From the NCBI GenBank assembly GCA_051362555.1, contig CM120640.1, positions 32,011,967 to 32,075,966 of the forward strand: a DNA stretch of 64,000 nt, given 5' to 3'. Shown one piece after another: positions 1 through 36,700 of the stretch (positions are counted from its first letter, which is position 1; the number at the start of each line of letters is the position of its first letter). The notes below the pieces were generated by a model that was not told the origin of the DNA, did not search any database, and saw only the letters and a list, made by a program, of their open reading frames with translations. The DNA comes from Lingula anatina. Its lineage: Eukaryota > Animalia > Brachiopoda. Made by a program: the position numbers and the translations under genes.

Positions 1-1832
1 TGACCTAGGTTTTGCCATTTCTGTAAACAGCAGCGCATGGAACCAGTTTGCTATTGTAGTGCTGTTTAATCGCCCACAGAGCCAAGGGTCATGTGGCCCA
101 ATGCAGCAAAAACCTTGAGATGGATGGGACATAGGCAGCCCCTTTGTTCCGGTGGCTTAGCCGGCTTGATTAACATAAGAAACACAGTATAGCTCTGCTT
201 CCAGCTATTTGTGCTAGAAAAATAAGATCCATATCAAACCTTTTACTCCATTTGAGAAATGTTTTTGGGTGCGGGGTGGTAGAAAATAAAATCAGCTCAC
301 GGTTGAATAATTGATAAATTGAAAAATAACAAAGAAACTGAGACATATTGATTTGATTTCTCTTAACCCCATTGATTTCCAAACATCAACATTCTGTAAG
401 GTTGATGAGACATGTTTTCCTGACCTAATTTGCCTTCCCACCTACCTAATGACTCAGTAGTAGAAAAATTAACAATACACCAGCTGTGACAGTAAGGGTA
501 CGTGCAGGTAACAGTTGGGGCATGGGCTAGGCACCAGAGGTATGAAGGTTCATTAAAATCATCAGCAGAAGGAAATTAAATGCTTCCAAATTCAAGGAAT
601 TGTAAATAAACATTGAAATTGCAGAGACCTATTTGCACCCTGTCCCGATATGGAATTTGTCAGGATTTCAGTCCGTTAGGTTAGATAGGTCTTTACATGG
701 GTGTAAGAAGTTCACTTCTTGCCATTAAACACGTGAATCCCCAGTGACTGCTACTTTTTGCCCCTAGTGAGTTGTATATGTGTGTGCCATGTTGTTGCTA
801 AAAAAAAAAGTATTCCCATTTTGGTGTTTATAGAAGGAACAGCTAGGCATTTAAACCACTTCACAACTGTGCAGGGTAACCTTTTTGGACTTGTCAAAAT
901 TCATTGTGCATAAAATGTCAGCATCAGCAGCTGCCACTTGAGGTCCATTCCTTCTCAGAGTGTTGTGATATGTAACAGATTATGGAGTAGCCAAGGCCGT
1001 GGATGCATGTCTGTATGTATTGACCCCTCTGGAGTTATCAGTTTGGGTGTACATGATTGTAATCAGCAGCAGGTGGTGTTCACATTAGTCTGTCCTGTGG
1101 AATTTATAATTGCTTTGTAAGGAGAAGGTAGTATGTGTTAATGGCTGTAGTCATGGCTCGTAACCAGCTAGTCAAACACAAAATGATGGACCTGCTTTTT
1201 TTCCTTCCAAGTATTTCTGCGTAAAGGGAGTACAACTTGATTCAAAAGAGCAGATTAAAGGGAACTTATCTGTGATAAGTAGTGAGATAAATGAAAGGAA
1301 GGAAGTGAGCATGGCCAGGTCTCCAGGGACTGCTGCATGCAATGCTTCATCACTGTGGTTTTCTGACAGAGACAGAATGTCCTGTGAGTCCATTACTTGT
1401 GAAACGGGATACAGGATAGGCTGTAATTTTACGATAACAGCTCTGCAGTTTCATAAATACACTAGAAAGCTGTTTCATCAGAAGGTCTGACATTTAAAAA
1501 ACAGCATCATCAGGATTCGTGCCCCGCGGCCTGATTTTGATCATATTATGTGGCTTGACTAGTGTGATCTACAACAGTTTTATGTGCATGTTGATGAGAG
1601 ATGCGGCTCTTTATGCAGCATCATTTGCCGACCCAGAAGGTCAAAAATAGCATGTAAAAGCTGCAGTTTCATGAGGGTGAAAAAGGTCTCTAGAATGTGT
1701 GTTTTATTACTTCAGCAGCTGCCATAAAAGCTGTCTGGATCAGCTTCACAGGTACTAGTTGAGATGGTATTTATTAAATGGTCTTGGGTACACCATTATG
1801 TAGAATCTGATGCATGTGTTGTCTATTTGCAG

Positions 1833-20507: not shown

Positions 20508-22269
20508 AAAAAGTTGATACCACACAGGCAGACTAAATGACAAAAGTTGACAACCAAATAATTCAAGACTGGAGCAAAAAATGGATACTGGAGCCTGGAT
20601 TGGCTGGTTCCATGAAGATGATGAAATCTGAAACTAGTGAATGTCAGAGTACCCTGCTGTGCTCTGAATGCAACTTGGAAGTGGAAATGGATTGCTTTCT
20701 ACACAGGGAATATCAGAAATAATGTATAAAGAAGTATATCGAAACCATATTTTGTGGAATTATACTACAACAACAGGATTATTTCTTATTTATGTGGAGT
20801 TATTTAAAGGCAGACTACATTAAAGTGCTGCAAAACTGGATTATTTAATGACTTGCAAAGCGATAGAGAAGAGGATTTTGGCTTTGGGCACACTATTGTT
20901 GTACTTATTATTGGGAACTTATTTCCCCCCCTGGAGCCGTCTTTGAATCTTGGCTGGCCAGGGTGGACTGGGGACTGCAGCTTGACTTAAGCAACATGGT
21001 GGACATCAATATTCACATTACGTGTGTCTTCAAGGAAGACAGACTGGTCATTAATTATTACGTTCATCTTTTCATTCATCATTGTCATCGGTGGCTTAAC
21101 ATTACTTTAAATGTGTGTGTGTGTAGTAGATTGGATCTTTTCTTTTTTTTTTTTTAATCATTATATAAAGTAAGACTATGTCTTATATACAGAGTACAAA
21201 TTCATCGAAGTAATATATGAGTACTATTGTATAACGTGACATTCTAAGAGTAAGATCACAATCCCTATTGGAGGATTGATCCAATATATAAAAGCACTGC
21301 CAGGGTGGGCTGGGGGGAGGGGCGCTTAGAGAAGTTATTTTCCAATCAGATAATGATTTTTCAATCAAATGATTTAATTATATACTGTTGCTGTTAGCAT
21401 TGGAGGTGTTGTATGAACTGTTGTAAAAATATCAAATCTTGGGGGAAATGTATCGAGAGACGTTCGTAAGAAAGCTTTCAGTGCCACTGATACTGTTGGA
21501 GCGAAGGATGTGAAAGCGTACAGAATAGTAGGGCAGAATTTTATTACGAGGTAAATGCCATGTTGTTGAGCTGTTTGAAATGTAGGTTTACATTGGCTAA
21601 GTTTAGTCTTAAATGTTTTGACTACTCTTATAAAGTAACAGTTTTACTTTTGATTAAATCGTCTTTTCTGACTTGGTTTCTAGTACTTGACAACACAGGA
21701 CTGGTGAAGTTCAGTGGAGTTTTTGAAGGAAATTCCTGTGAAATGTTATGAAGTTTTGTAAATAGGCGTTGTACATTTGTGCATAGTATAATGAGTGAGT
21801 TTAGACAAGCAGCAAAGCAGAGTTATACTTAAAAAGATAAGGGGGACATTTGAACTAGGAACTCAACACTGGAATCATTTTGGCCAGTGGATCTTTCAAA
21901 AGGGTCTGGCTTCATTTGCATTCTACTTTTTAAATAAGTTTTAGCTTCTAGTTGCCCTACTGTTGATAGCACCTTTGTCACTGTTGCTATGTTTGGGGTT
22001 GCTTCTGTTGAAAACTACATCATGGCTTCATATTGTTTCCAATTGTTTGCTGCAGATTTCTGGTCTCACTTGAAGTTGCTGCTTTGTTCACTGTTCAGAA
22101 AGATTTCTCTCTAGACTTGGCTGCTGTATATAAATAGGACTATTTTTATACAAAACTACTGTCAAGCATGTGTGTTAAGTGGTAATATACTTGTAATTTG
22201 CTATGAAAGAAGCAGAATGAAGCACACGTCTTGATTAGACTTTTAGAAAAACATTCTCCCACCATTCTT

Positions 22270-22275
22270 AATAAA
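22270..22275 (+). promoter_or_regulatory. Likely polyadenylation signal of KDM3 (3' UTR about 1.8 kb)
   Basis: AATAAA followed about 25 nt later by a GT/T-rich tract (tgttttgtctgtttttctttgtt). Confidence 0.55.
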
Positions 22276-22812
22276 AAAAATCTATTCATGATAAATGTTT
22301 TGTCTGTTTTTCTTTGTTATTTAAAAATAAATTTCTACATAAAGTGAATGACTAACAACGCAAATTATTTTTGCAAGCAATGTACAAATACTGTAAAAAG
22401 TTTCTCATACAAAAAAGCTAAAATAGCAAAAGTAACTGCAGTTTAATCTATTATGATGACAAAAACCTTTAAATGAAAGTGGCACAAAAAAATCATGTAA
22501 AAAAACATTTCACTTTTTCAAATAAAGAATGTCTTACATAAGAAACAAGGTAACTGTAAGAGACAAAAATATTCTACCTTGAAGCCATATTTACCTGTTC
22601 TAGCCTTTCTTAGATGATTAAGTAAAACAAATAATCCTCAAATATCTCTGAGAATTAAAAAAAAAAAGCACTTTAAGGGACTAAAGACATTCAAACTTAA
22701 CAGAATATACAAAAGTTTGACTTTCATGTAACTCTTAAAAAAAGGCTGTGCTTATCACGTATGTGTGCACCATGTCCATCTTCAAAAAATCTTTTTAAGA
22801 TTACTGTGACAT

Positions 22813-24328
22813 CTATGTCAAGTCCACCACATTTCTTGGACTCCCAGCTTCCTCCTCATCCAGCAAGACTGACACACATCTCTCCACATCAATATTACAA
22901 TCCAGCAGCGCAGAGATGGCTCTCTCCTGGCTGACATGGGGCAGAATACCCAACAATGTTTGGACTTTGTTGTCAAATTCCGCCTGAAGTCTTTCATTAT
23001 TACATTGTGCGGTCATACTGCAACTTTTATCGGAAGAGGTATTTGAACCATATTTCACCGAATGAAAATCTGTGAGTACACTAGAGGCCGTTTCTATCTT
23101 TGTTTTCTTAACACGTGGACCTTTGCTGATAGAATAGGTGGTGAGGTCTGGCAGACCTTGATTGCTGTCATCATCTGACAACTCGCCAAAAACGGTTCTT
23201 CTGACAGCGACCTGCCCCTTGCCGCCTTCTGGAGCACCAGTTGAAGGAGGTGACTTTGGGGAAGAACTGGCTCCCTTTCCTGGTGGGGTCTTCATCAAAT
23301 ATATCCTAGCACCTGTACTTGATGATGGAGTGCTGGCTGTTGAGGATGGTGTGACTTCTGGGGAGTTGAGGTGATAACTCATTTTAAGCTTTGGCACTCT
23401 CCTCGGGACTCCTGGTGAGGTTGCTTTCTGCTCCGTGATATTAGAGGAGTCAGAAAAGGCCTTCCTTGTTATTGTCCTTGCAGGTTTATGTTGTTTACCA
23501 GTCACTGAAACACTACTAGCGGCAAAATTGTCATCGTCAGCAATGACGCTCTCACTGCCTGCAGTGATTGCTTTATGTGGATTGCCTAATACCTTGGGAA
23601 CTGCGCTAGCAGAACCCAAAGATGATAAAACTGGTGGTCTTACCCATGCAGTTTTGTTATAGTTCTCACCAGTCTTAAAAGCACCTTGCATACTTGGCCC
23701 TGCCTTGATGGTGGTTGTTGGTTGGGCAGTGTCACTTTCTGGTTGGTATCTACCTATGATTTTCGGCAGCACTCCCTCCTGGATGTGAATTGTGGGGACT
23801 GGTTTTGGTTTCTTGACCAGAGGAACGTTGACCGATGTCCCTGGTGTAGAGTGATATTGGGCAAGTTGTATGGGGGCTTCATCTTCTTCAACAGTAAGGT
23901 AATTATTATTTTTCTCTTGAGGGCTTCTGCTGTTGTTGCTCTGTTGTGGTCTCACCTTCATAGTTTGTTTCTCTGTGACATTGGGCAATTTTTCATAGTC
24001 CCCTGACAACAACTGGCTCTTTCTGACAATACGATTTTCATCATCATCATCATCATTGCTTTCAGTGTGTTTCACTGAATCTCTAGTTTTGTGCTGGTCC
24101 ACACTCGCGTCAACCTGTAACTCATCTGCCCAATGTGACGTGCTGGGATCTTCAGACGTAACAGTAGCAGAGGTTTTGCGCCTTTTCTTGAAATTGTTGG
24201 CCTTTGCTGAGGTATGCCCCCTTTCTGAGCCTTCTGAACCCGTTGCAGCCGACTCTATCCGAGTGGACATAAATTGGTCTGGGTTAATGTCCTTCACTAT
24301 TAGGTCATCAAACTCACCACAGTCCGAC
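22813..24328 (-). CDS. MUS81-like last exon: disordered tail, CUE-like domain, SIM-like C-terminus
   Basis: 510-aa ORF entered at ttcacag|G; ends KVQTLLGILPHVSQERAISALLDCNIDVERCVSVLLD...NVVDLT*. Confidence 0.85.
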
Positions 24329-27300
24329 CTGTGAATTAAAAACAAAATTCAGTGCTCAGTGATCTTTCTGGCAAATAATAAGTACAACTTTAATCAAGGA
24401 CGAGACTGCCATTCAGTGAAAAAATCGGAAAAAAATGGTGTTAGGTCCAGGGTCTGCTCAAGTTAATGACATTTTTGACTCCCAAAAAGTCAGAAATCTG
24501 CCAATAATCGGGAAAATCTCATCCCTGTTTAATGTTTAATTTTCCTGAAAATTTTTTAACACCTTCCCTTGATGATACTAATGATGCTATGTCTTATATA
24601 AAACAATGTACCGTCTACATAAATAAATGTTGTTCTTACTTTAAACCAGAATTTCATACCAAAACTCCTTTTTTTTCAACTAAAACTACTGAAATTGTTA
24701 TCATATCATTTAATTTATTCGTTACAGATTAGAATGAAATTTTATCAGACTGTTAGCATCACTTTCCATTCAAATTTGAGAATATTTCAAACAGTTTCAT
24801 AGCCAAAAAAACAAGATGAACTTCTATTTTTATTCCTCAATGCGGAAATTTGAATTAAAAAACCTAAAAATAGCATTCACCTCTGCTGCAGTTCTGCAGT
24901 TATTATTGCCAGCATTTCCACAGTGTGACCAATGTTGTCCGTCTTCAAAACTTCAAAATCTTGGCAATTCTCCAGATCTTCAATAGCTTTCTACAAAGAA
25001 TAAGTGTAAGCATATGTTAAAAAACATGCCAGTTACAAATATATTAACCCCATGAAAACATATAACCAGAGAAGGCAGAAAATATTAACTTGAAGTCAAA
25101 AGCTATAAGAAAGAGTACTATCAGACAAGAATTTGTGGTGTTTTGAATCTTGTTTGATAAAAATAATGCACTACTCAGGCATAGTTTTCACTAACAATCT
25201 CAAATCTAAAGTTGTCTCAAATAATACATATAGTACAGCTGGTTGTTTATGAGAAAGTGTTCAAATAAGCTATTCCAACAAGTAACTAGAACGCACAATT
25301 CAATGAACTCAATATTCAGCAAAAATGGCTCCAACTGAAAAAAAAAAGGTACCAACATTTAACTGTAAAGCACTTGGGTAGCCACACTTGCCCACTCCAC
25401 CACACCCATCAGCACACTGCACCACAAACTGCTCTGGCCTGGACTCCAAGATGTACTTCAGCACAGCAGGAACGCCTTGGGACGTGAACGCTGCCTTCCA
25501 TTTCACCATATCCCGGCGCTGCTTCCCATACCTGCCATCTACTAGGCTTTTTGCCAGGTCATCTAAAAAAAAGGCACAAGTAGCTAGGGAATAAAATTTT
25601 ATATACCCTCGATTTCCAGGAATATCCCATTAAGTTCTTCTGGGTACTGTAGACAGGGTTCAGTGAGGGCTTTGAAATTTGGAATCCAAATTCACTTTCT
25701 TACACAGACAGGCAGTCTAGGTTCCATGTGATAAAAAAAACATTGAAATAGGGAGTCCAAGAGGCAGCTGGATGGTAACATGGCCAATGCCTTGTCTGTA
25801 ATCAAATTTTAGGCCTCTGTAGCAGAAATTCGCAGACAGACATGGTTAAAGAATACGATAATAGTTGTGCCTCTGCCATTTGACTGAACTGAGTCCTTAT
25901 TGGAAGAGTGCTCGCCTCAGTCAGGACAGGCCATGGGATCAGTTCACATCTCACAACTTGTGCTGTAAGGTTACCAGAATTTAAAGAATGTTTTTATGTA
26001 GTCAACAGGTGCTAATGACCAGACAAAAGGTATTATATGACAGACACAAAACATTTACTAACTCCCAACCCTTGGGACTGTTGTGAATAAAATATACTTG
26101 ATATTCAGGTATTTATTAACTAAATGGAGAAGAATTTTGCTCCAAGGCAATCTGTAATGCTTAAAATCAAATTAAGCCAAAGATACAATTCTGCTGTTAA
26201 AATAACAATAGTAGGGCTGGAAATAAAGCATAATATCAAAATACAACTCACTGTCATCCATGAGGACAAACACTGAGCCCCAGTGCTTGGTCACCAAACA
26301 AATTATTTACCTGCTCTCTTCCTCTCTACCAGTAGTGGCATCACTCTCTCCTCACCCCCACATCTCAGCAACCAGGAATAATCTCCACACGCCAACTTTT
26401 TGGTCCGATATCTCAGTCCCGTTTGTTTGATCAGGTCTATCAACTAAAATACAGCAAATATACAAAAATGATTCTAAATAGACTTATCTGGTAAATTTTT
26501 CTCTTCTCAAATATCAATATTACTTCGACAAGAAGCAAAAAGTTATTTCTGTTACATTCTTGCCTTTTTCTTTAACAAATACTAATATCTTCATTTACGG
26601 GAATATACCCAGATGTAAAAGAAAACATTATAATAACTAATACTCAGAATTCAAAGATTGAAAAATTTCCAGATTACAGCTTTTTTGCCTAATCAAGAGA
26701 GCCCACTCTAAGACTAACCTGTCCAAGTCCTCTGTGGTCACCTCCAAACTCCTGTGTGTCCACCAAAATGACCAGGCTACAATGTTATAAAACACTTGAA
26801 CAGATGAGATCAATAATCCACCACCAAATACCCTAAAAAAAGGCTTGAAAGCAATAACTGAGAAGTCATATTACACTTTGCACAGGGAGTTTATTTGGTT
26901 ATGAAATTTCGCCAAGACAAACCGAAAATAAGGATAAAACTTAAACATTATGTATTTTGAACATATCTAAAACAAAAATTACATGCATGCATGTGCATGT
27001 AGATGACCAGGCCCGTAGCCAGGGGGGGTTCGGGGGGTTCGAAAGAACCCCCCCTTTTGTCGGAAAAGGTCCATTTTGGGTAAAATTTCATCTAGGTTCA
27101 CATAAGTTTCATTATAAAAGGTCCACTTTTACAGAAAAAGAACCCCCCCTTTTGAATTTCCTGGCTGGATACGGGCCTGTGACATCTGTTATTTCGTGAA
27201 AAGTTTATGCTCAATTCCAGCCATATAATATTTGTCTAAATCAAAAATTGCTAGACAAGTTTGTTACACACCCATCAGAACCGTCATCATTAGTGTAAAG

Positions 27301-29418
27301 AGTTCCATACTGCTGATCCTCCTCTTTCTCCACCATATTGCTACCCGAGTGTTGTGTGGAGCTAGGCTGGAATGTTGCTGCAAATAAACCAACATAAACC
27401 TGTTAACAAAGATGGCTTTTTCATAGAACATCTTCCAAAGTTAAACAAATTTGTTGCAATGTAAAGCAAGACTGTTCAGTGTTTTGACCATGTATCTTGG
27501 TCTGCTCTCAAATGAAATCTTTAATTGAAATATCAAACTTTGCATTAATTCTTGGACTGAAACAATTACATTTCTCTTTGAAAATACCATAAAAGGAAAG
27601 GACTTGAATTTGTTTTTAAACTGTTGATATTCACCCCTCAGTCTGGTAGCCTCTTCTTCCCCAAGTGGCAGCAATTGATAGACTGGTGTTTGAGCCAAAG
27701 ACCTCTTCTTGATCAAGTCTCTGTTACACAGGACGTTCAACCTCCAAGCTGCCATGCAGAATGCTAGAAACATACATACATACATAACAAACATTTCAAG
27801 CAAAATGATAAAGCAATATCTGAGAGCGAACACGAAATAAAGTTGATATTGTATTTCCACATTTTCAATGCAGCAAAATATTCAACTAGATTATTATGTG
27901 TATAATGATACTGAAATCAACTGTTTTTTTTTTTCATTTGGACAAAAAGAATAATATGTACTTGTGTGAGACTAGGAGGGTTTACCACACAACTAATTCA
28001 ACATTACCTTTAGGTATGTGGTTAAACTTTTCCTCACACAACTTTGCAGCTTCTTCTATAAGCATAGCCTCTGGTATCAAAATGTTTTCCTTTGGACTAA
28101 AATAATCAATTTAAAGTAAATTAATAAATAAAAGAAAAAAATCTCTAAATGTAATTTTCTTTTAGAGCAACCATGACACAAAAGGGGGGGGGGGGGGGGG
28201 GGGGGGGGGGGCTCAAATAAAAGAGTTAACTGATGACACTGTATAGCAGACAAATAACTTTGACACAAATAATAATAATATCTAACAATTGGTTTATCAG
28301 CTGTAATTCTACTATGTATATAGTATATAACGAAACTGAAAAATATGCCCTATTGTAACATTCATGTCTTATTTTTACCTGTTATCTTGAAGAGATTGTA
28401 CTTCAGTGAGATTCAACATGGCCACAAGGAACGCAGGAGCTGAACTCACAAACATGCCAGCAGGTGGTGCTTTATTGCTTAGGTGTTTGAATCCCATCAT
28501 CTCCTTCAACTTTTCCGACAATTCTTTCCCTATCTGAAGACACACACCAAATAAATGTTATGATCAGAACAAAACAAATGCAAAGCCATATTAAAAGGAT
28601 ATATTTCAGTTATATGTATGTCAATCCAAACATTAATAATGTGTTGCATTAGCAGCTAAAATATCTCTTGAAATACTCACAGATCTTACTGTCCAATGTA
28701 ATATGTAGAATTAAGTTATACAATATAAAAATAAGTCTTGTATTCAAACTTTCAAGAATTTTCATAACCTATTTAAATGGTTTAGTACTCTTCATTTTAT
28801 AGCCTTTACAGCACAATTTAAAATAACAAAACAAAGTATCCTATGGCTCACCCCCTCTAATTTGGCTGCCTGGTTGACAGATTTCACAGGTTCCTGGGAC
28901 AGCTCCAGGGAAATGATGGCTTTGGATGTCCATTCTGCTGCTGATTTCAAATAAACACAGTTCCTCTGGTATCCCTCATACTCAATCAAACCTCGGATGA
29001 ACTTGTACCTCTGGAAAGAATACGATACCAACAACTTCATACATTACTTGTAATGTAAAATGAAGGTGTACTGGTAGTAAAGGCAAAATATGAGCAGTAC
29101 ATACCTTGCATCATTTTCAAACTTGTACAGATAAATAATGTGGAATGATAAATAATGGAAACGATAATTTAAGACTACAACTTCACGAGCGTGGGAAAAA
29201 ATTCAATATTTCGCAAGTTTTAACTTAGCGGGTCAACAGGGAATGTTGCGAGTGAAATGAAACTAGTTACTACTGTTTGAAACAGACAACTAGCACGACC
29301 CTTACAATTACTATTCTCCTCATAATCTCGATGCTGAACTTGATAGATATATATATAATCACGACATTTACGAAACCAATATACTCACGAGGTCGAGATA
29401 ACTCCTTCCTCGTTTCAT
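22813..29418 (-). CDS. MUS81-like ERCC4/XPF-family structure-specific endonuclease, about 896 aa, 11 exons: 29418-29389, 29010-28852, 28533-28379, 28096-28008, 27763-27635, 27377-27272, 26776-26719, 26443-26311, 25562-25357, 24990-24881, 24328-22813
   Basis: All exon phases are consistent (2691 nt total). HhH: AAKLEGIGKELSEKL. Winged helix: SSAPAFLVAML..EAAKLCEEKF..AAWRLNVLCNRDLI..YQLLPLGEEEA. ERCC4: LVILVDTQE..LACGDYSW..VERKRADDLAKSLVDGRYGKQR..YILE. The start codon and the 25357 donor are less certain. Confidence 0.85.
25357..25562 (-). CDS. MUS81-like exon 9 (ERCC4 continued)
   Basis: DDLAKSLVDGRYGKQRRDM...LKYILE...CADGCGGVGKCGYP. Confidence 0.85.
26311..26443 (-). CDS. MUS81-like exon 8 (ERCC4 catalytic GD...ERK)
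   Basis: YRTKKLACGDYSWLLRCGGEERVMPLLVERKRA. Confidence 0.9.
27008..27179. mobile_element. MITE-like element in an intron of the MUS81-like gene
   Basis: Terminal inverted repeats CAGGCCCGTA / TACGGGCCTG, TGAC on both flanks (possible 4-bp TSD), internal repeated GAACCCCCC and AAAAGGTCCA. Confidence 0.7.
27635..27763 (-). CDS. MUS81-like exon 5 (winged helix)
   Basis: MAAWRLNVLCNRDLIKKRSLAQTPVYQLLPLGEEEATRL. Confidence 0.85.
28184..28212. repeat. Poly-G tract
   Basis: About 29 consecutive G. Confidence 0.9.
28379..28533 (-). CDS. MUS81-like exon 3 (end of HhH, start of winged helix)
   Basis: IGKELSEKLKEM...SSAPAFLVAML; canonical splice sites. Confidence 0.85.
28852..29010 (-). CDS. MUS81-like exon 2 (N-terminal HhH domain)
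   Basis: ttccag|AGG ... GGG|gtgagc; KAIISLELSQEPVKSVNQAAKLEG. Confidence 0.85.
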
Positions 29419-33749: not shown

Positions 33750-36700
33750 GAGGAGGGAGGGTACGTAAATTGAAAAAGTTCTAATCTCATTCTAATTTCT
33801 TTTTACAGGACATAGAAGATGATGAGTGCCAACCATCGAATATTGACTTCTCTTCGGATCAAGAATTTAAGGTTAGTAAATTTCATTTTTTTGGAGGGGA
33901 TTGGTAAATTGACTTAAAATCTAATCTAGTTTTATTTCTTTTTTACAGAACATTGAAGACAATGAGCGACTCTACCCAGACATAGACTTCACACATCGAT
34001 AGAAGTTAAGGTTAGTAATCTTTTTATTTGGGGGAGGGGGGGGGAGGATTGCGACAGGGTAAATTAAAAAGATCTAACCTCATTCCTATTTCTTTTACAG
34101 GACATAGAAGATGATGAATGCCTACCAGCCTACCAGCCTACCATCAAGCATTGACTACTCTTTGGATCAAGAATTTAAGGTTAGTAAATTTCATTTTTTT
34201 GGAGGGGATTGGTAAATTGACTTAAAATCTAATCTAGTTTTATTTCTTTTTTACAGAACATTGAAGACGATAAACGACTCTACCCAGACATAGACTTCAC
34301 ACATCGATAGAAGTTAAGGTTAGTAATCTTTTTATTTGGGGGAGGGGGGGGAGGATGGGGGAGAGGTAAATTAAAAAAGATCTTACCTCATTCCTATTTC
34401 TTTTACAGGACATAGAAGATGATGAATGCCTACCAGCCTACCAGCCTACCATCAAGCATTGACTACTCTTTGGATCAAGAATTTAAGGTTAGTAAATTTC
34501 ATTTTTTTGGAGGGGATAGGTAAATTGAATAAAAATCTAATCTAGTTTTATTTCCTTTACAGAACACAGAAGACGATGAAAGACTCTACCCAGACATAGA
34601 CTTCACACATCGATAGAAGTTAAGGTTAGTAAACTTTTTATTTGGGGGAGGGGGGGGGGAGGATGGGGGAGAGGTAAATTAAAAAGATCTAACCTCATTC
34701 CTATTTCTTTTACAGGACATAGAAGATGATGAATGCCTACCAGCCTACCATCAAGCATTGACTACTCTTTGGATCAAGAATTTAAGGTTAGTAAATTTCA
34801 TCTTTGGAGGGGATAGGTAAATTGAATTAAAATCTAATCTAGTTTTATTTCTTTTACAGAACAAAGAAGACAATGAAAGACTCTACCCAGACATAGACTT
34901 CACACATCGATAGAAGTTAAGGTTAGTAAACTTTTTATTTGGGGGAGGGGGGGGGGAGGATGGCGGGAGAGGTAAATTAAAAAGATCTAACCTCATTCCT
35001 ATTTCTTTTACAGGTCATAGAAGATGATGAATGCCTACCAGCCTACCAGCCTACCATCAAGCATTGACTACTCTTTGGATCATGAATTTAAGGTTAGTAA
35101 ATTTCATTTTTTTGGAGGGGATAGGTAAATTGAATAAAAATCTAATCTAGTTTTATTTCTTTTTACAGAACATAGAAGACTATGAGCGACTCTACCCTGA
35201 CATAGAATTCACACATCGATAGAAGTTAAGGTTGGTAAACTTATTATTTGGGGAAGGGGGGGATGTGGGGAGAGGTAAATTAAAAAGATCTAACCTCATT
35301 CCTATTTATTTTACAGGACATAGAAGATGATGAATGCATAGAATACGATGAGCGACTCTACCCAGACACAGACTTCACACATCGATAGAAGTTAAGGTAA
35401 GTAAACTTTTTATTTGGGGGAGGGGGGGGGGGAGGATGGGGGAGAGGTAAATTAAAAAGATCTAACCTCATTCCTATTTCTTTTACAGGACATAGAAGAT
35501 GATGAATGCCTACCAGCCTACTAGCCTACCATCAAGCATTGACTACTCTTTGGATCAAGAATTTAAGGTTAGTAAATTTCATTTTTTGGAGGGGATAGGT
35601 AAATTGAATTAAAATCTAATCTAGTTTTATTTCCTTTACAGAACACAGAAGACAATGAAAGACTCTACCCAGACACAGACTTCACACATCGATAGAAGTT
35701 AAGGTTAGTAAACATATTATTTGGGGGAGGGGGGGGATGTGGGGAGAGGTAAATTAAAAAGTTCTAACCTCATTCCTATTTCTTTTACAGGACATAGAAG
35801 ATGATGAATGCATAGAAGACGATGAGCGACTCTACCCAGACACAGACTTCACACATCGATAGAAGTTAAGGTTAGTAAACTTTTTATTTGGGGGAGGGGG
35901 GGGATGGGGGAGAGGTAAATTAAAAAGATCTAACCTCATTCCTGTTTCTTTTACAGGACATAGAAGATAATGCATGCATAGAAGACGATGAGCGACTCTA
36001 CCCAGACACAGACTTCACACGTCGATAGAAGTTAAGGTTAGTAAACTTTTTATTTGGGGGAGGGGGGGGGGAGGATGGGGGAGAGGTAAATTAAAAAGTT
36101 CTAACCTCATTCCTATTTCTTTTACAGGACATAGAAGATGATGAATGCATAGAAGACGATGAGCGACTCTACCCAGACACAGACTTCACACATCGATAGA
36201 AGTTAAGGTTAGTAAACTTTTTATTTGGGGGAGGGGGGGGGAGGATGGGGGAGAAGTAAATTAAAAAGATCTAACCTCATTCCTATTACTTTTACAGGAC
36301 ATAGAAGATGATGAATGCATAGAAGACGATGAGCGACTCTACCCAGACACAGACTTCACACATCGATAGAAGTTAAGGTTAGTAAACTTTTTATTTAGGG
36401 GAGGGGGGGGGGAGGATATGGGAGAGGTAAATTAAAAAGATCTAACCTCATTCCTGTTTCTTTTACAGGACATAGAAGATGATGTATGCATAGAAGACGA
36501 TGAGCGACTCTACCCAGACACAGACTTCACACATCGATAGAAGTTAAGGTTAGTAAACTTTTTATTTGGGGGAGGGGGGGGGGGGAGGATGGGGGAGAGG
36601 TAAATTAAAAAGTTCTAACCTCATTCCTATTTCTTTTACAGGACATAGAAGATGATGAATGCATAGAAGACGATGAGCGACTCTACCCAGACACAGACTT

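Follow-up and report, generated by a model that had tools for sequence, protein, structure and literature searches.

Can a single-chain ERCC4 domain select and cut branched DNA? The question is raised by a gene on the minus strand of contig CM120640.1 of the brachiopod Lingula anatina (assembly GCA_051362555.1), within a 64,000-nucleotide stretch (forward-strand positions 32,011,967 to 32,075,966) that we call the window and whose numbering is used throughout. Members of the XPF/MUS81 family are described as always dimeric and as always carrying a C-terminal pair of helix–hairpin–helix (HhH) motifs, (HhH)2, the latter being given for all members in a section of PMC3905867. The protein encoded here has the ERCC4 fold and the catalytic motif of this family and no (HhH)2, and an intact branch of this kind tests whether the rule is mechanistic or historical.

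We propose that the gene is an expressed, ancient MUS81 paralog, whose product is likely an active, Mg-dependent, structure-selective endonuclease, probably EME1-independent, and likely tethered to chromatin through ubiquitin and perhaps SUMO; taken together, these sequence-based predictions have about an even chance of being right. The active-site residues are kept, the EME1-pairing domain is missing and a predicted ubiquitin-binding domain stands at the end, and the protein therefore likely cuts branched DNA under different control.

The gene is intact, expressed and separate from canonical MUS81

Reading the minus strand in three frames and mapping the exon borders gave GT–AG borders at 10/10 introns and no internal stop codon (Table 1). 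The RNA evidence consists of raw reads with the same species label aligned to the locus; they diverge from the window by ~5% and thus come from other individuals. All 10 introns are supported by read joints (5–59 reads each) in run X1, which has six weaker joints besides, and the last-exon joint, 24328|24881, was crossed by 32, 30, 34 and 1 reads in four RNA runs. The first-pass annotation, made from the sequence alone, had held that its proposal would fall if the last exon belonged to another gene; the spliced reads place this exon in the nuclease gene. Between 22270 and 26990 the four runs list no joint beyond the four expected, and among the read joints no (HhH)2-coding exon is spliced into the transcript. 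In run X1, which is stranded, first mates lie on the plus strand across the gene and on the minus strand across the 3′ end of its neighbour (21500–22350), so transcription of the two genes runs in opposite directions.

A search with the exon-9 peptide returned one protein among 16 candidates, L. anatina XP_013403533. Two L. anatina records, this one included, are identical to the model at 868/896 and 874/896 residues (97%), and the window differs from the records by 6/410 changes in the core and 17/421 in the tail. Record P0002 (899 aa) extends four codons past the window stop (22804–22815), reading SMSQ after VVDLT, which is a stop-codon variant between alleles or copies. UniRef names the Lingula protein plain MUS81, and databases have the proteins of its family as uncharacterised or MUS81. 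That label and the poorly conserved tail would suit a MUS81 copy that has decayed or been misannotated, or a two-gene chimera, an explanation with virtually no probability: the reads are spliced, the architecture recurs in five animal phyla and the core has changed less than the tail. On the strength of the read joints and of this shared architecture, we regard it as ruled out.

The search for paralogs covered collections of protein sequences. A search with aa 1–410 yielded 22 proteins among 5497 candidates, with 38–51% identity, from a brachiopod, a nemertean, molluscs, lancelets and anthozoans, and the same architecture is seen across these five phyla. With a canonical query, a separate Lingula MUS81 (P0219, 801 aa) and a Nematostella MUS81 (P0268) appeared among the 120 listed of 900 matches, each with four Pfam domains (HHH_8, WH, ERCC4 and EME1-MUS81_C). 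The two Lingula paralogs share 27% identity over 188 aa, compared with the 38–51% that links the gene in the window (hereafter the second paralog) to its own-family relatives in other phyla. Pfam scans of 68 proteins found EME1-MUS81_C in 20/23 canonical and 0/45 non-canonical ones.

Trees were built from 13 animal, 23 other and 15 canonical rows selected from larger sets, with the insert columns (see below) removed and no known plant canonical MUS81 included. In the tree of these 51 rows, the 15 canonical rows, P0219 and P0268 among them, form one side of a 100/100 branch, and the Lingula second paralog lies outside it. The protein has the N-terminal HhH and winged helix (WH) of a MUS81 ortholog and does not group with canonical MUS81. 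It is almost certainly a MUS81 paralog, and the divergent paralog proposed at first pass stands. As Lingula and Nematostella each have a canonical MUS81 too, the paralog predates the cnidarian–bilaterian split, and duplication before that split is secure.

The N-terminal domains and the active site are those of MUS81

AlphaFold2, run on a 22-row alignment, gave a mean predicted local distance difference test score (pLDDT) of 57.9 and a predicted template modelling score of 0.35, with four folded parts: a helical region (11–76), a winged helix (~88–190), the nuclease domain (~220–405) and three helices (832–885). The N-terminal HhH is predicted with moderate confidence (pLDDT about 55–74) and matches Pfam HHH_8 at aa 40–74 under the cutoff (E 7e-4); at E up to 1 the match is found in 20/22 family members. 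The winged-helix region has no match to Pfam MUS81-like_WH and aligns with the MUS81 WH 2mc3 at Z 8.3 (root-mean-square deviation, rmsd, 3.7; 92 aligned). The nuclease domain, with pLDDT mostly 85–96, matches Pfam ERCC4 at aa 228–383 (E 2e-11, 44.4 bits vs a cutoff of 24). Its best fold match is MUS81 (Foldseek E 2.5e-10; 9f98_A, Z 17.3, rmsd 3.0, 158 aligned), and the archaeal XPF/Hef folds 1j22 and 2bgw align at Z 14.9 and 13.4. A family profile aligned to 16 canonical MUS81 proteins through HhH, WH and ERCC4 in one run (aa 37–394, probability 100%), ending there. Pfam, the fold matches and this profile alignment confirm the HhH, WH and intact GDY...ERKRADD motif that had been read from the sequence.

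GDY occupies residues 262–264 and ERKRADD 282–288, giving the GDXnERKX3D motif as G262 D263 ... E282 R283 K284 ... D288, whose Asp, Glu, Arg, Lys and Asp are invariant in 22/22 members. The whole invariant set (22/22) is D229, E232, D263, E282, R283, K284, D288, R297 and Q301, and the same nine residues are conserved in at least 90% of 56 rows, algal ones included. Section 8 of PMC12207449 gives four Mg2+ ligands and eight wedge residues for yeast Mus81, which we mapped onto the family by motif spacing: 9 of the 12 are identical in 22/22 members, one more is Ser or Thr throughout, and the remaining two vary. All four metal ligands are kept in the Lingula protein (D229, E232, D263 and E282). 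The second paralog is, on this conservation, likely an active nuclease, in which these four residues would bind Mg2+ and the R283–Q301 wedge would position branched DNA as in MUS81.

FANCM–FAAP24 and Zip2–Spo16 (SHOC1–SPO16) are likewise ERCC4-fold paralogs with altered architecture, Spo16 having a single HhH according to a section of PMC6411835. A DNA-binding scaffold like these, with little or no cutting, would mark branched DNA and gather ubiquitin- or SUMO-bearing factors. The long interaction tail and the lack of an (HhH)2 for substrate placement would fit such a role, and FANCM itself combines a similar active-site geometry with no cutting, as reported in part of PMC3905867. However, FANCM has an altered Lys and last Asp, whereas the motif residues are invariant in 22/22 animal members here and kept in at least 90% of 56 rows; the known complexes are HhH dimers without nuclease activity, whereas the second paralog retains the catalytic motif but lacks any C-terminal HhH. 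A scaffold is therefore very unlikely.

The (HhH)2 is missing and the probable dimer face is altered

AlphaFold2 predicts no C-terminal HhH motifs, in line with what was first read. Our own (HhH)2 profile, which detected 100/100 held-out canonical MUS81 proteins, found none in the window protein (0/1), the animal members (0/23) or the other members (0/42; 0/66 in all), an absence that weighs less in the 42 non-animal rows because some are fragments. An archaeal (HhH)2 profile was left unused as insensitive (1/100 canonical detected). Where the (HhH)2 would be expected there is a tail in which all 10-residue blocks of aa 407–831 have a mean pLDDT <50, with no folded segment. Its S/T/P/K content is 38%, vs 19–24% in the N-terminal folded parts, and its identity to relatives per 25 residues is 5–14%, vs 28–62% in the core, the tail being unalignable across phyla. 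The disorder and composition described at first pass hold, but the length of ~450 aa does not: the tail measures about 425 aa.

The nuclease domain carries, just ahead of its second-last helix, a Cys-rich insert of 13–14 residues, which the first-pass annotation had not noticed. Its pattern is C-x-D-G-C-x5-C in animals and C-x-C-x-C-x5-C in many algal-type rows. It holds 3–5 Cys in 19/19 animal and 30/42 other rows, compared with 0–1 in 23/23 canonical rows; the Cys have disappeared from a diatom-type group, and the insert is absent from 13 prokaryotic XPF rows. We infer from the sequence that it forms a zinc knuckle.

The helix that follows the insert, at the alpha-4 position, likewise went unremarked at first pass. 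It has a mean of 0.27 charged residues in canonical MUS81, 0.62 in prokaryotic XPF, and 3.5 and 2.8 in two non-canonical sets. A signature of Q, A, N, T and D, each in 20/23 canonical rows, gives way to variable, charged residues in the second-paralog family, whose positions 359 and 363 have polar residues where both prokaryotic XPF and canonical MUS81 have hydrophobic ones. At position 370, canonical MUS81 mostly has Lys, whereas the second-paralog family has a hydrophobic residue, as does prokaryotic XPF. The helix after the wedge is longer than in MUS81, and animal members have a conserved R-x3-G-[DE]-F-[DE] helix after alpha-5. Because the (HhH)2 is gone and alpha-4 is charged, both known dimer surfaces would be altered, and the protein may act as a monomer or with a partner of its own; these features make independence from EME1 on balance probable. 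The possible EME1 independence put forward at first pass thereby gains a second, indirect argument in the charged alpha-4. The N-terminal HhH and winged helix, together with the Cys insert as a predicted zinc knuckle, would take over the duplex grip of the missing (HhH)2; a SAP domain may serve stramenopile-type members as a further DNA grip.

The same surfaces bear on two dimeric arrangements. An active nuclease could pair with EME1 or another ERCC4-fold protein via the nuclease domains, the partner supplying the only (HhH)2. In FANCM–FAAP24 the nuclease-domain interface buries 1021 Å2 and the (HhH)2 interface 950 Å2 (given in a section of PMC3905867), the modelled chains of entry 9f98 (185 and 144 residues) are solely nuclease-type domains, and mixing among ERCC4 proteins is predicted in a portion of PMC11377751. 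Although beta-6 and alpha-5 keep hydrophobic residues, the replaced alpha-4 signature and the polar 359 and 363 make this arrangement unlikely, though by no means negligible. The other possibility is a homodimer like archaeal XPF, formed via beta-6, alpha-5 and the extra C-terminal helix, whose two active sites could pair-cut a Holliday junction. Archaeal XPF members are homodimers (PMC3905867), residue 370 is hydrophobic as in prokaryotic XPF, and the R-x3-G-[DE]-F-[DE] helix follows alpha-5. We consider self-pairing quite unlikely, as alpha-4 is charged here and uncharged in prokaryotic rows, and the (HhH)2 that completes the archaeal dimer is missing. The ERCC4 fold and the GDXnERKX3D motif are shared with archaeal XPF/Hef, but those homodimers have (HhH)2 and lack the N-terminal HhH, WH, insert and tail.

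A predicted CUE/UBA-type domain and a SIM-like motif at the C-terminus

Beyond the tail, the three-helix bundle (832–885) has block pLDDT values of 93–95 over most of its length. Its fold is predicted in both full-length and isolated models, bearing out the CUE/UBA-like helical domain of the first-pass annotation. A CUE-like domain is found at the C-terminus of 21/22 animal members (the exception, of 568 aa, is perhaps cut short), retained though the intervening tail is unalignable. Pfam CUE is matched at E up to 1 in 18/22 members (best 2e-6), and the fragment P0049 passes the cutoff with 25.7. When folded alone, the C-terminal piece matches mostly UBA/CUE domains (Z 5.2–8.0), and sequence comparison pairs it with a mouse UBA (E 9e-5) and, weakly, with Cue2 1otr (E 0.64). 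A Pro-bearing hydrophobic loop is present in 20/21 aligned C-termini and LL or IL in 21/21, which we take to correspond to the MFP-type loop and di-leucine motifs of CUE. The Nematostella member has ubiquitin-interacting-motif-like repeats in addition, which fit selection for ubiquitin binding. As modelled, the CUE domain, carried on a flexible leash of 425 residues, is likely to bind ubiquitin.

The protein ends in VVDLT, which does match the consensus V/I-V/I-D-L-T of a SUMO-interacting motif (SIM), as claimed at first pass; VIDLT and VDLT are given as SIM cores of PIAS1 and RNF4 in a section of PMC3901395. The strict motif occurs in 5/22 animal members (0.05 expected from shuffles) and 7/42 others (0.06 expected), within the last 15 residues in 4 of the 5 and 5 of the 7 carriers, and a loose motif occurs in 7/22 animal members. 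What does not survive is the SIM as a family-wide substitute for the (HhH)2: it is patchy, in 5/22 animal members vs 56/140 canonical MUS81 (a set rich in near-redundant fish sequences), and we rejected it as a family trait. As many canonical MUS81 proteins also carry the motif, SUMO binding may be a shared MUS81 trait and not a replacement. For the Lingula motif itself, we lean slightly towards SUMO binding by VVDLT.

In the fish MUS81 proteins P0186, P0193 and P0233, an acid-flanked VVDLT lies at residues about 250–265, between WH and nuclease, and is a candidate SIM in MUS81 itself.

Ubiquitin- and SUMO-binding modules are known to direct XPF/MUS81 nucleases: SLX4 targets such a nuclease with UBZ4 and SIMs (part of PMC8599992), and SIMs of Eme1 target MUS81 in fission yeast, S. 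pombe (part of PMC9032445). In those systems a partner carries the modules and binding has been proven, whereas in the second paralog they are on the catalytic chain, with a CUE domain as the ubiquitin module, and binding is predicted only. The tail would thus provide in cis the targeting that SLX4 and fission-yeast Eme1 give in trans.

The tail also has an acidic short motif with L-P-D-[IL] in 15/22 animal, 0/42 other and 0/140 canonical proteins, a pattern defined after the matches had been viewed. Neither a PCNA-interacting (PIP) box nor a full cyclin-dependent kinase (CDK) site was found in the Lingula protein.

Distribution and origin of the family

The single-gene view of the first-pass annotation was too narrow, as the Lingula gene belongs to an old family. 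Among 1.84 billion representatives, a profile search (best 150 of 2073 matches) gave distant relatives with the same N-terminal order. Among 20 representatives looked up, the named non-canonical ones are Cymbomonas (green alga), Choanoeca (choanoflagellate), two pelagophytes, Proboscia (diatom) and a Nonionella transcriptome. A SAP domain is present in 13/45 non-canonical proteins scanned (9 above cutoff). In the non-canonical P0097 a partial ERCC4 domain is followed by an AAA_33 P-loop domain, and P0096 has SAP and a zinc knuckle; the C-terminal part of the family is freely exchanged. For vertebrates, arthropods, fungi and land plants, the result is only that the 22 homologs and 20 representatives include no named match. 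In an atlas, the large clusters that come nearest hold canonical MUS81 (0.93) or are ERCC4-only (0.83–0.89), with none named for the second-paralog family, and a tblastn search of plasmids gave no match. Pfam PF28540, precomputed for P0001, was absent from our Pfam scans.

When 13 prokaryotic XPF-like outgroup rows were added, the canonical branch received 97/98, and the base of the non-canonical rows was not resolved. A single non-canonical clade is not rejected (approximately unbiased, AU, test, p 0.17), and the 0% for non-canonical monophyly in the 51-row tree applies to sub-groups only. An animal-only duplication, joining animal canonical and non-canonical rows, was rejected at AU p 0.001, a result that depends on the assumption that the canonical rows P0127 and P0148 are non-animal. 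The shared insert is the main support for a much older origin, which the family may have; lateral transfer is a possible alternative. XPF-like ERCC4 matches were also seen in bacterial metagenome bins (Sumerlaeota, Gammaproteobacteria and Opitutia; L016:1501-1998, L014 and L029), of which L016 groups with a Poseidoniales archaeal row in the tree.

Several points weigh against the second paralog being an old, active, EME1-independent nuclease with its own ubiquitin and SUMO targeting. Two of the 12 yeast residues are not preserved, K429 being variable and R431 being Asp in Lingula and Lys/Arg in the other 21 members. The alpha-4 mapping derives from helix and strand order, not coordinates, and, compared with canonical MUS81, animal members are more hydrophobic at 370 in beta-6 and at 383 and 387 in alpha-5, so a dimer via the rest of the dimer face is possible. 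The Lingula CUE, as an isolated piece, scores 17.4 bits, under the Pfam cutoff of 21.1; Z 5.2–8.0 is a range common for small helical bundles; fold does not separate CUE from UBA; one of its top fold matches, SMARCAD1 CUE1, was solved in complex with KAP1, not ubiquitin; and the 45 non-canonical proteins scanned gave no CUE match in non-animal members. The strict SIM is missing from most members, yet it is present in the 56/140 canonical MUS81 proteins, where it is never terminal. Finally, all non-canonical proteins form one clade in only 5% of bootstrap trees with the outgroup.

The second paralog resembles MUS81 in its domain order (HhH, WH, ERCC4), its active-site and wedge residues and its best fold match, and differs in being a separate gene without (HhH)2 and with a Cys-rich insert, a longer post-wedge helix, a charged alpha-4 and a CUE tail. 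Tentatively, it might represent an ancestral eukaryotic XPF/MUS81-family nuclease, a MUS81 sister as old as the animal–algal split and the family's first single-chain enzyme, one that exchanged (HhH)2 and EME1 for a zinc-knuckle insert and for grips that differ between lineages (SAP in stramenopile-type members), that has its own ubiquitin/SUMO targeting and that escaped notice because it was apparently lost in vertebrates, insects, yeasts and land plants. In the open-access literature, as represented by listings and the starts of abstracts, no description of a second MUS81 family was found, and subscription papers or supplementary ortholog tables might mention it. The second paralog would be a hitherto unrecognised nuclease for DNA repair or meiosis in cnidarians, molluscs, brachiopods, lancelets and several algae. 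Because databases label the family as MUS81 or uncharacterised, gene inventories may confuse the two paralogs.

Table 1. Position of the MUS81-like gene and its encoded features in the window
Feature	Residues (aa)	Window positions	Strand	Details or basis
Whole gene	896 aa	22813..29418	minus	11 coding exons, ATG 29418 to stop 22813
Exons 1–6		29418-29389, 29010-28852, 28533-28379, 28096-28008, 27763-27635, 27377-27272	minus	
Exons 7–11		26776-26719, 26443-26311, 25562-25357, 24990-24881, 24328-22813	minus	
N-terminal HhH (Pol-lambda 8-kDa-like)	11-76	28495..29010	minus	Pfam HHH_8 (weak), profile alignment to MUS81 N-HhH
Winged helix	88-190	27370..28461	minus	Fold matches, profile alignment to MUS81 WH
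ERCC4/XPF nuclease domain	222-405	24289..27276	minus	Pfam ERCC4, fold match, residue census
Cys-rich insert in nuclease domain (C336, D338, C340, C346)	329-350	25372..25437	minus	Invariant 22/22
Disordered S/T/P/K-rich tail, where (HhH)2 expected	407-832 (~425 aa)	23008..24285	minus	pLDDT, low identity
Acidic short motif, then L-P-D-L	776-787	23143..23178	minus	Conserved in animal members
CUE/UBA-type three-helix domain, hydrophobic-hydrophobic-Pro loop and di-leucine	833-886	22846..23007	minus	Fold, Pfam, alignment
Terminal VVDLT, SIMb-like	892-896	22816..22830	minus	Motif match, pLDDT <50

Neighbouring sequence in the window

The plus strand carries a large JmjC gene of many exons (Pfam JmjC, E 5e-10) at about 1800–22350. 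It is convergent with the MUS81-like gene and ends ~500 bases from its stop codon, with 3′ reads to about 22260. This neighbour is presumably KDM3/JMJD1-like.

Two repeats fall within introns of the MUS81-like gene. One in intron 6 (27008–27179) has 15-base inverted ends, attracts thousands of reads from other loci and resembles a miniature inverted-repeat transposable element (MITE-like); the other, in intron 10 (24399–24512), is a short repeat attracting loose-ended reads. On the other side of the gene, positions 35647–63961 are occupied by a 28-kb tandem array of a 171-base unit with 83% matches, with degenerate copies to about 35200. The unit is exon–intron-like, with a pyrimidine tract and AG, 62–87 bases and a GTTAG donor, and 156 such units were counted. 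The commonest units have stops in all three plus-strand frames, and the array is therefore probably a non-coding satellite amplified from an exon–intron piece.

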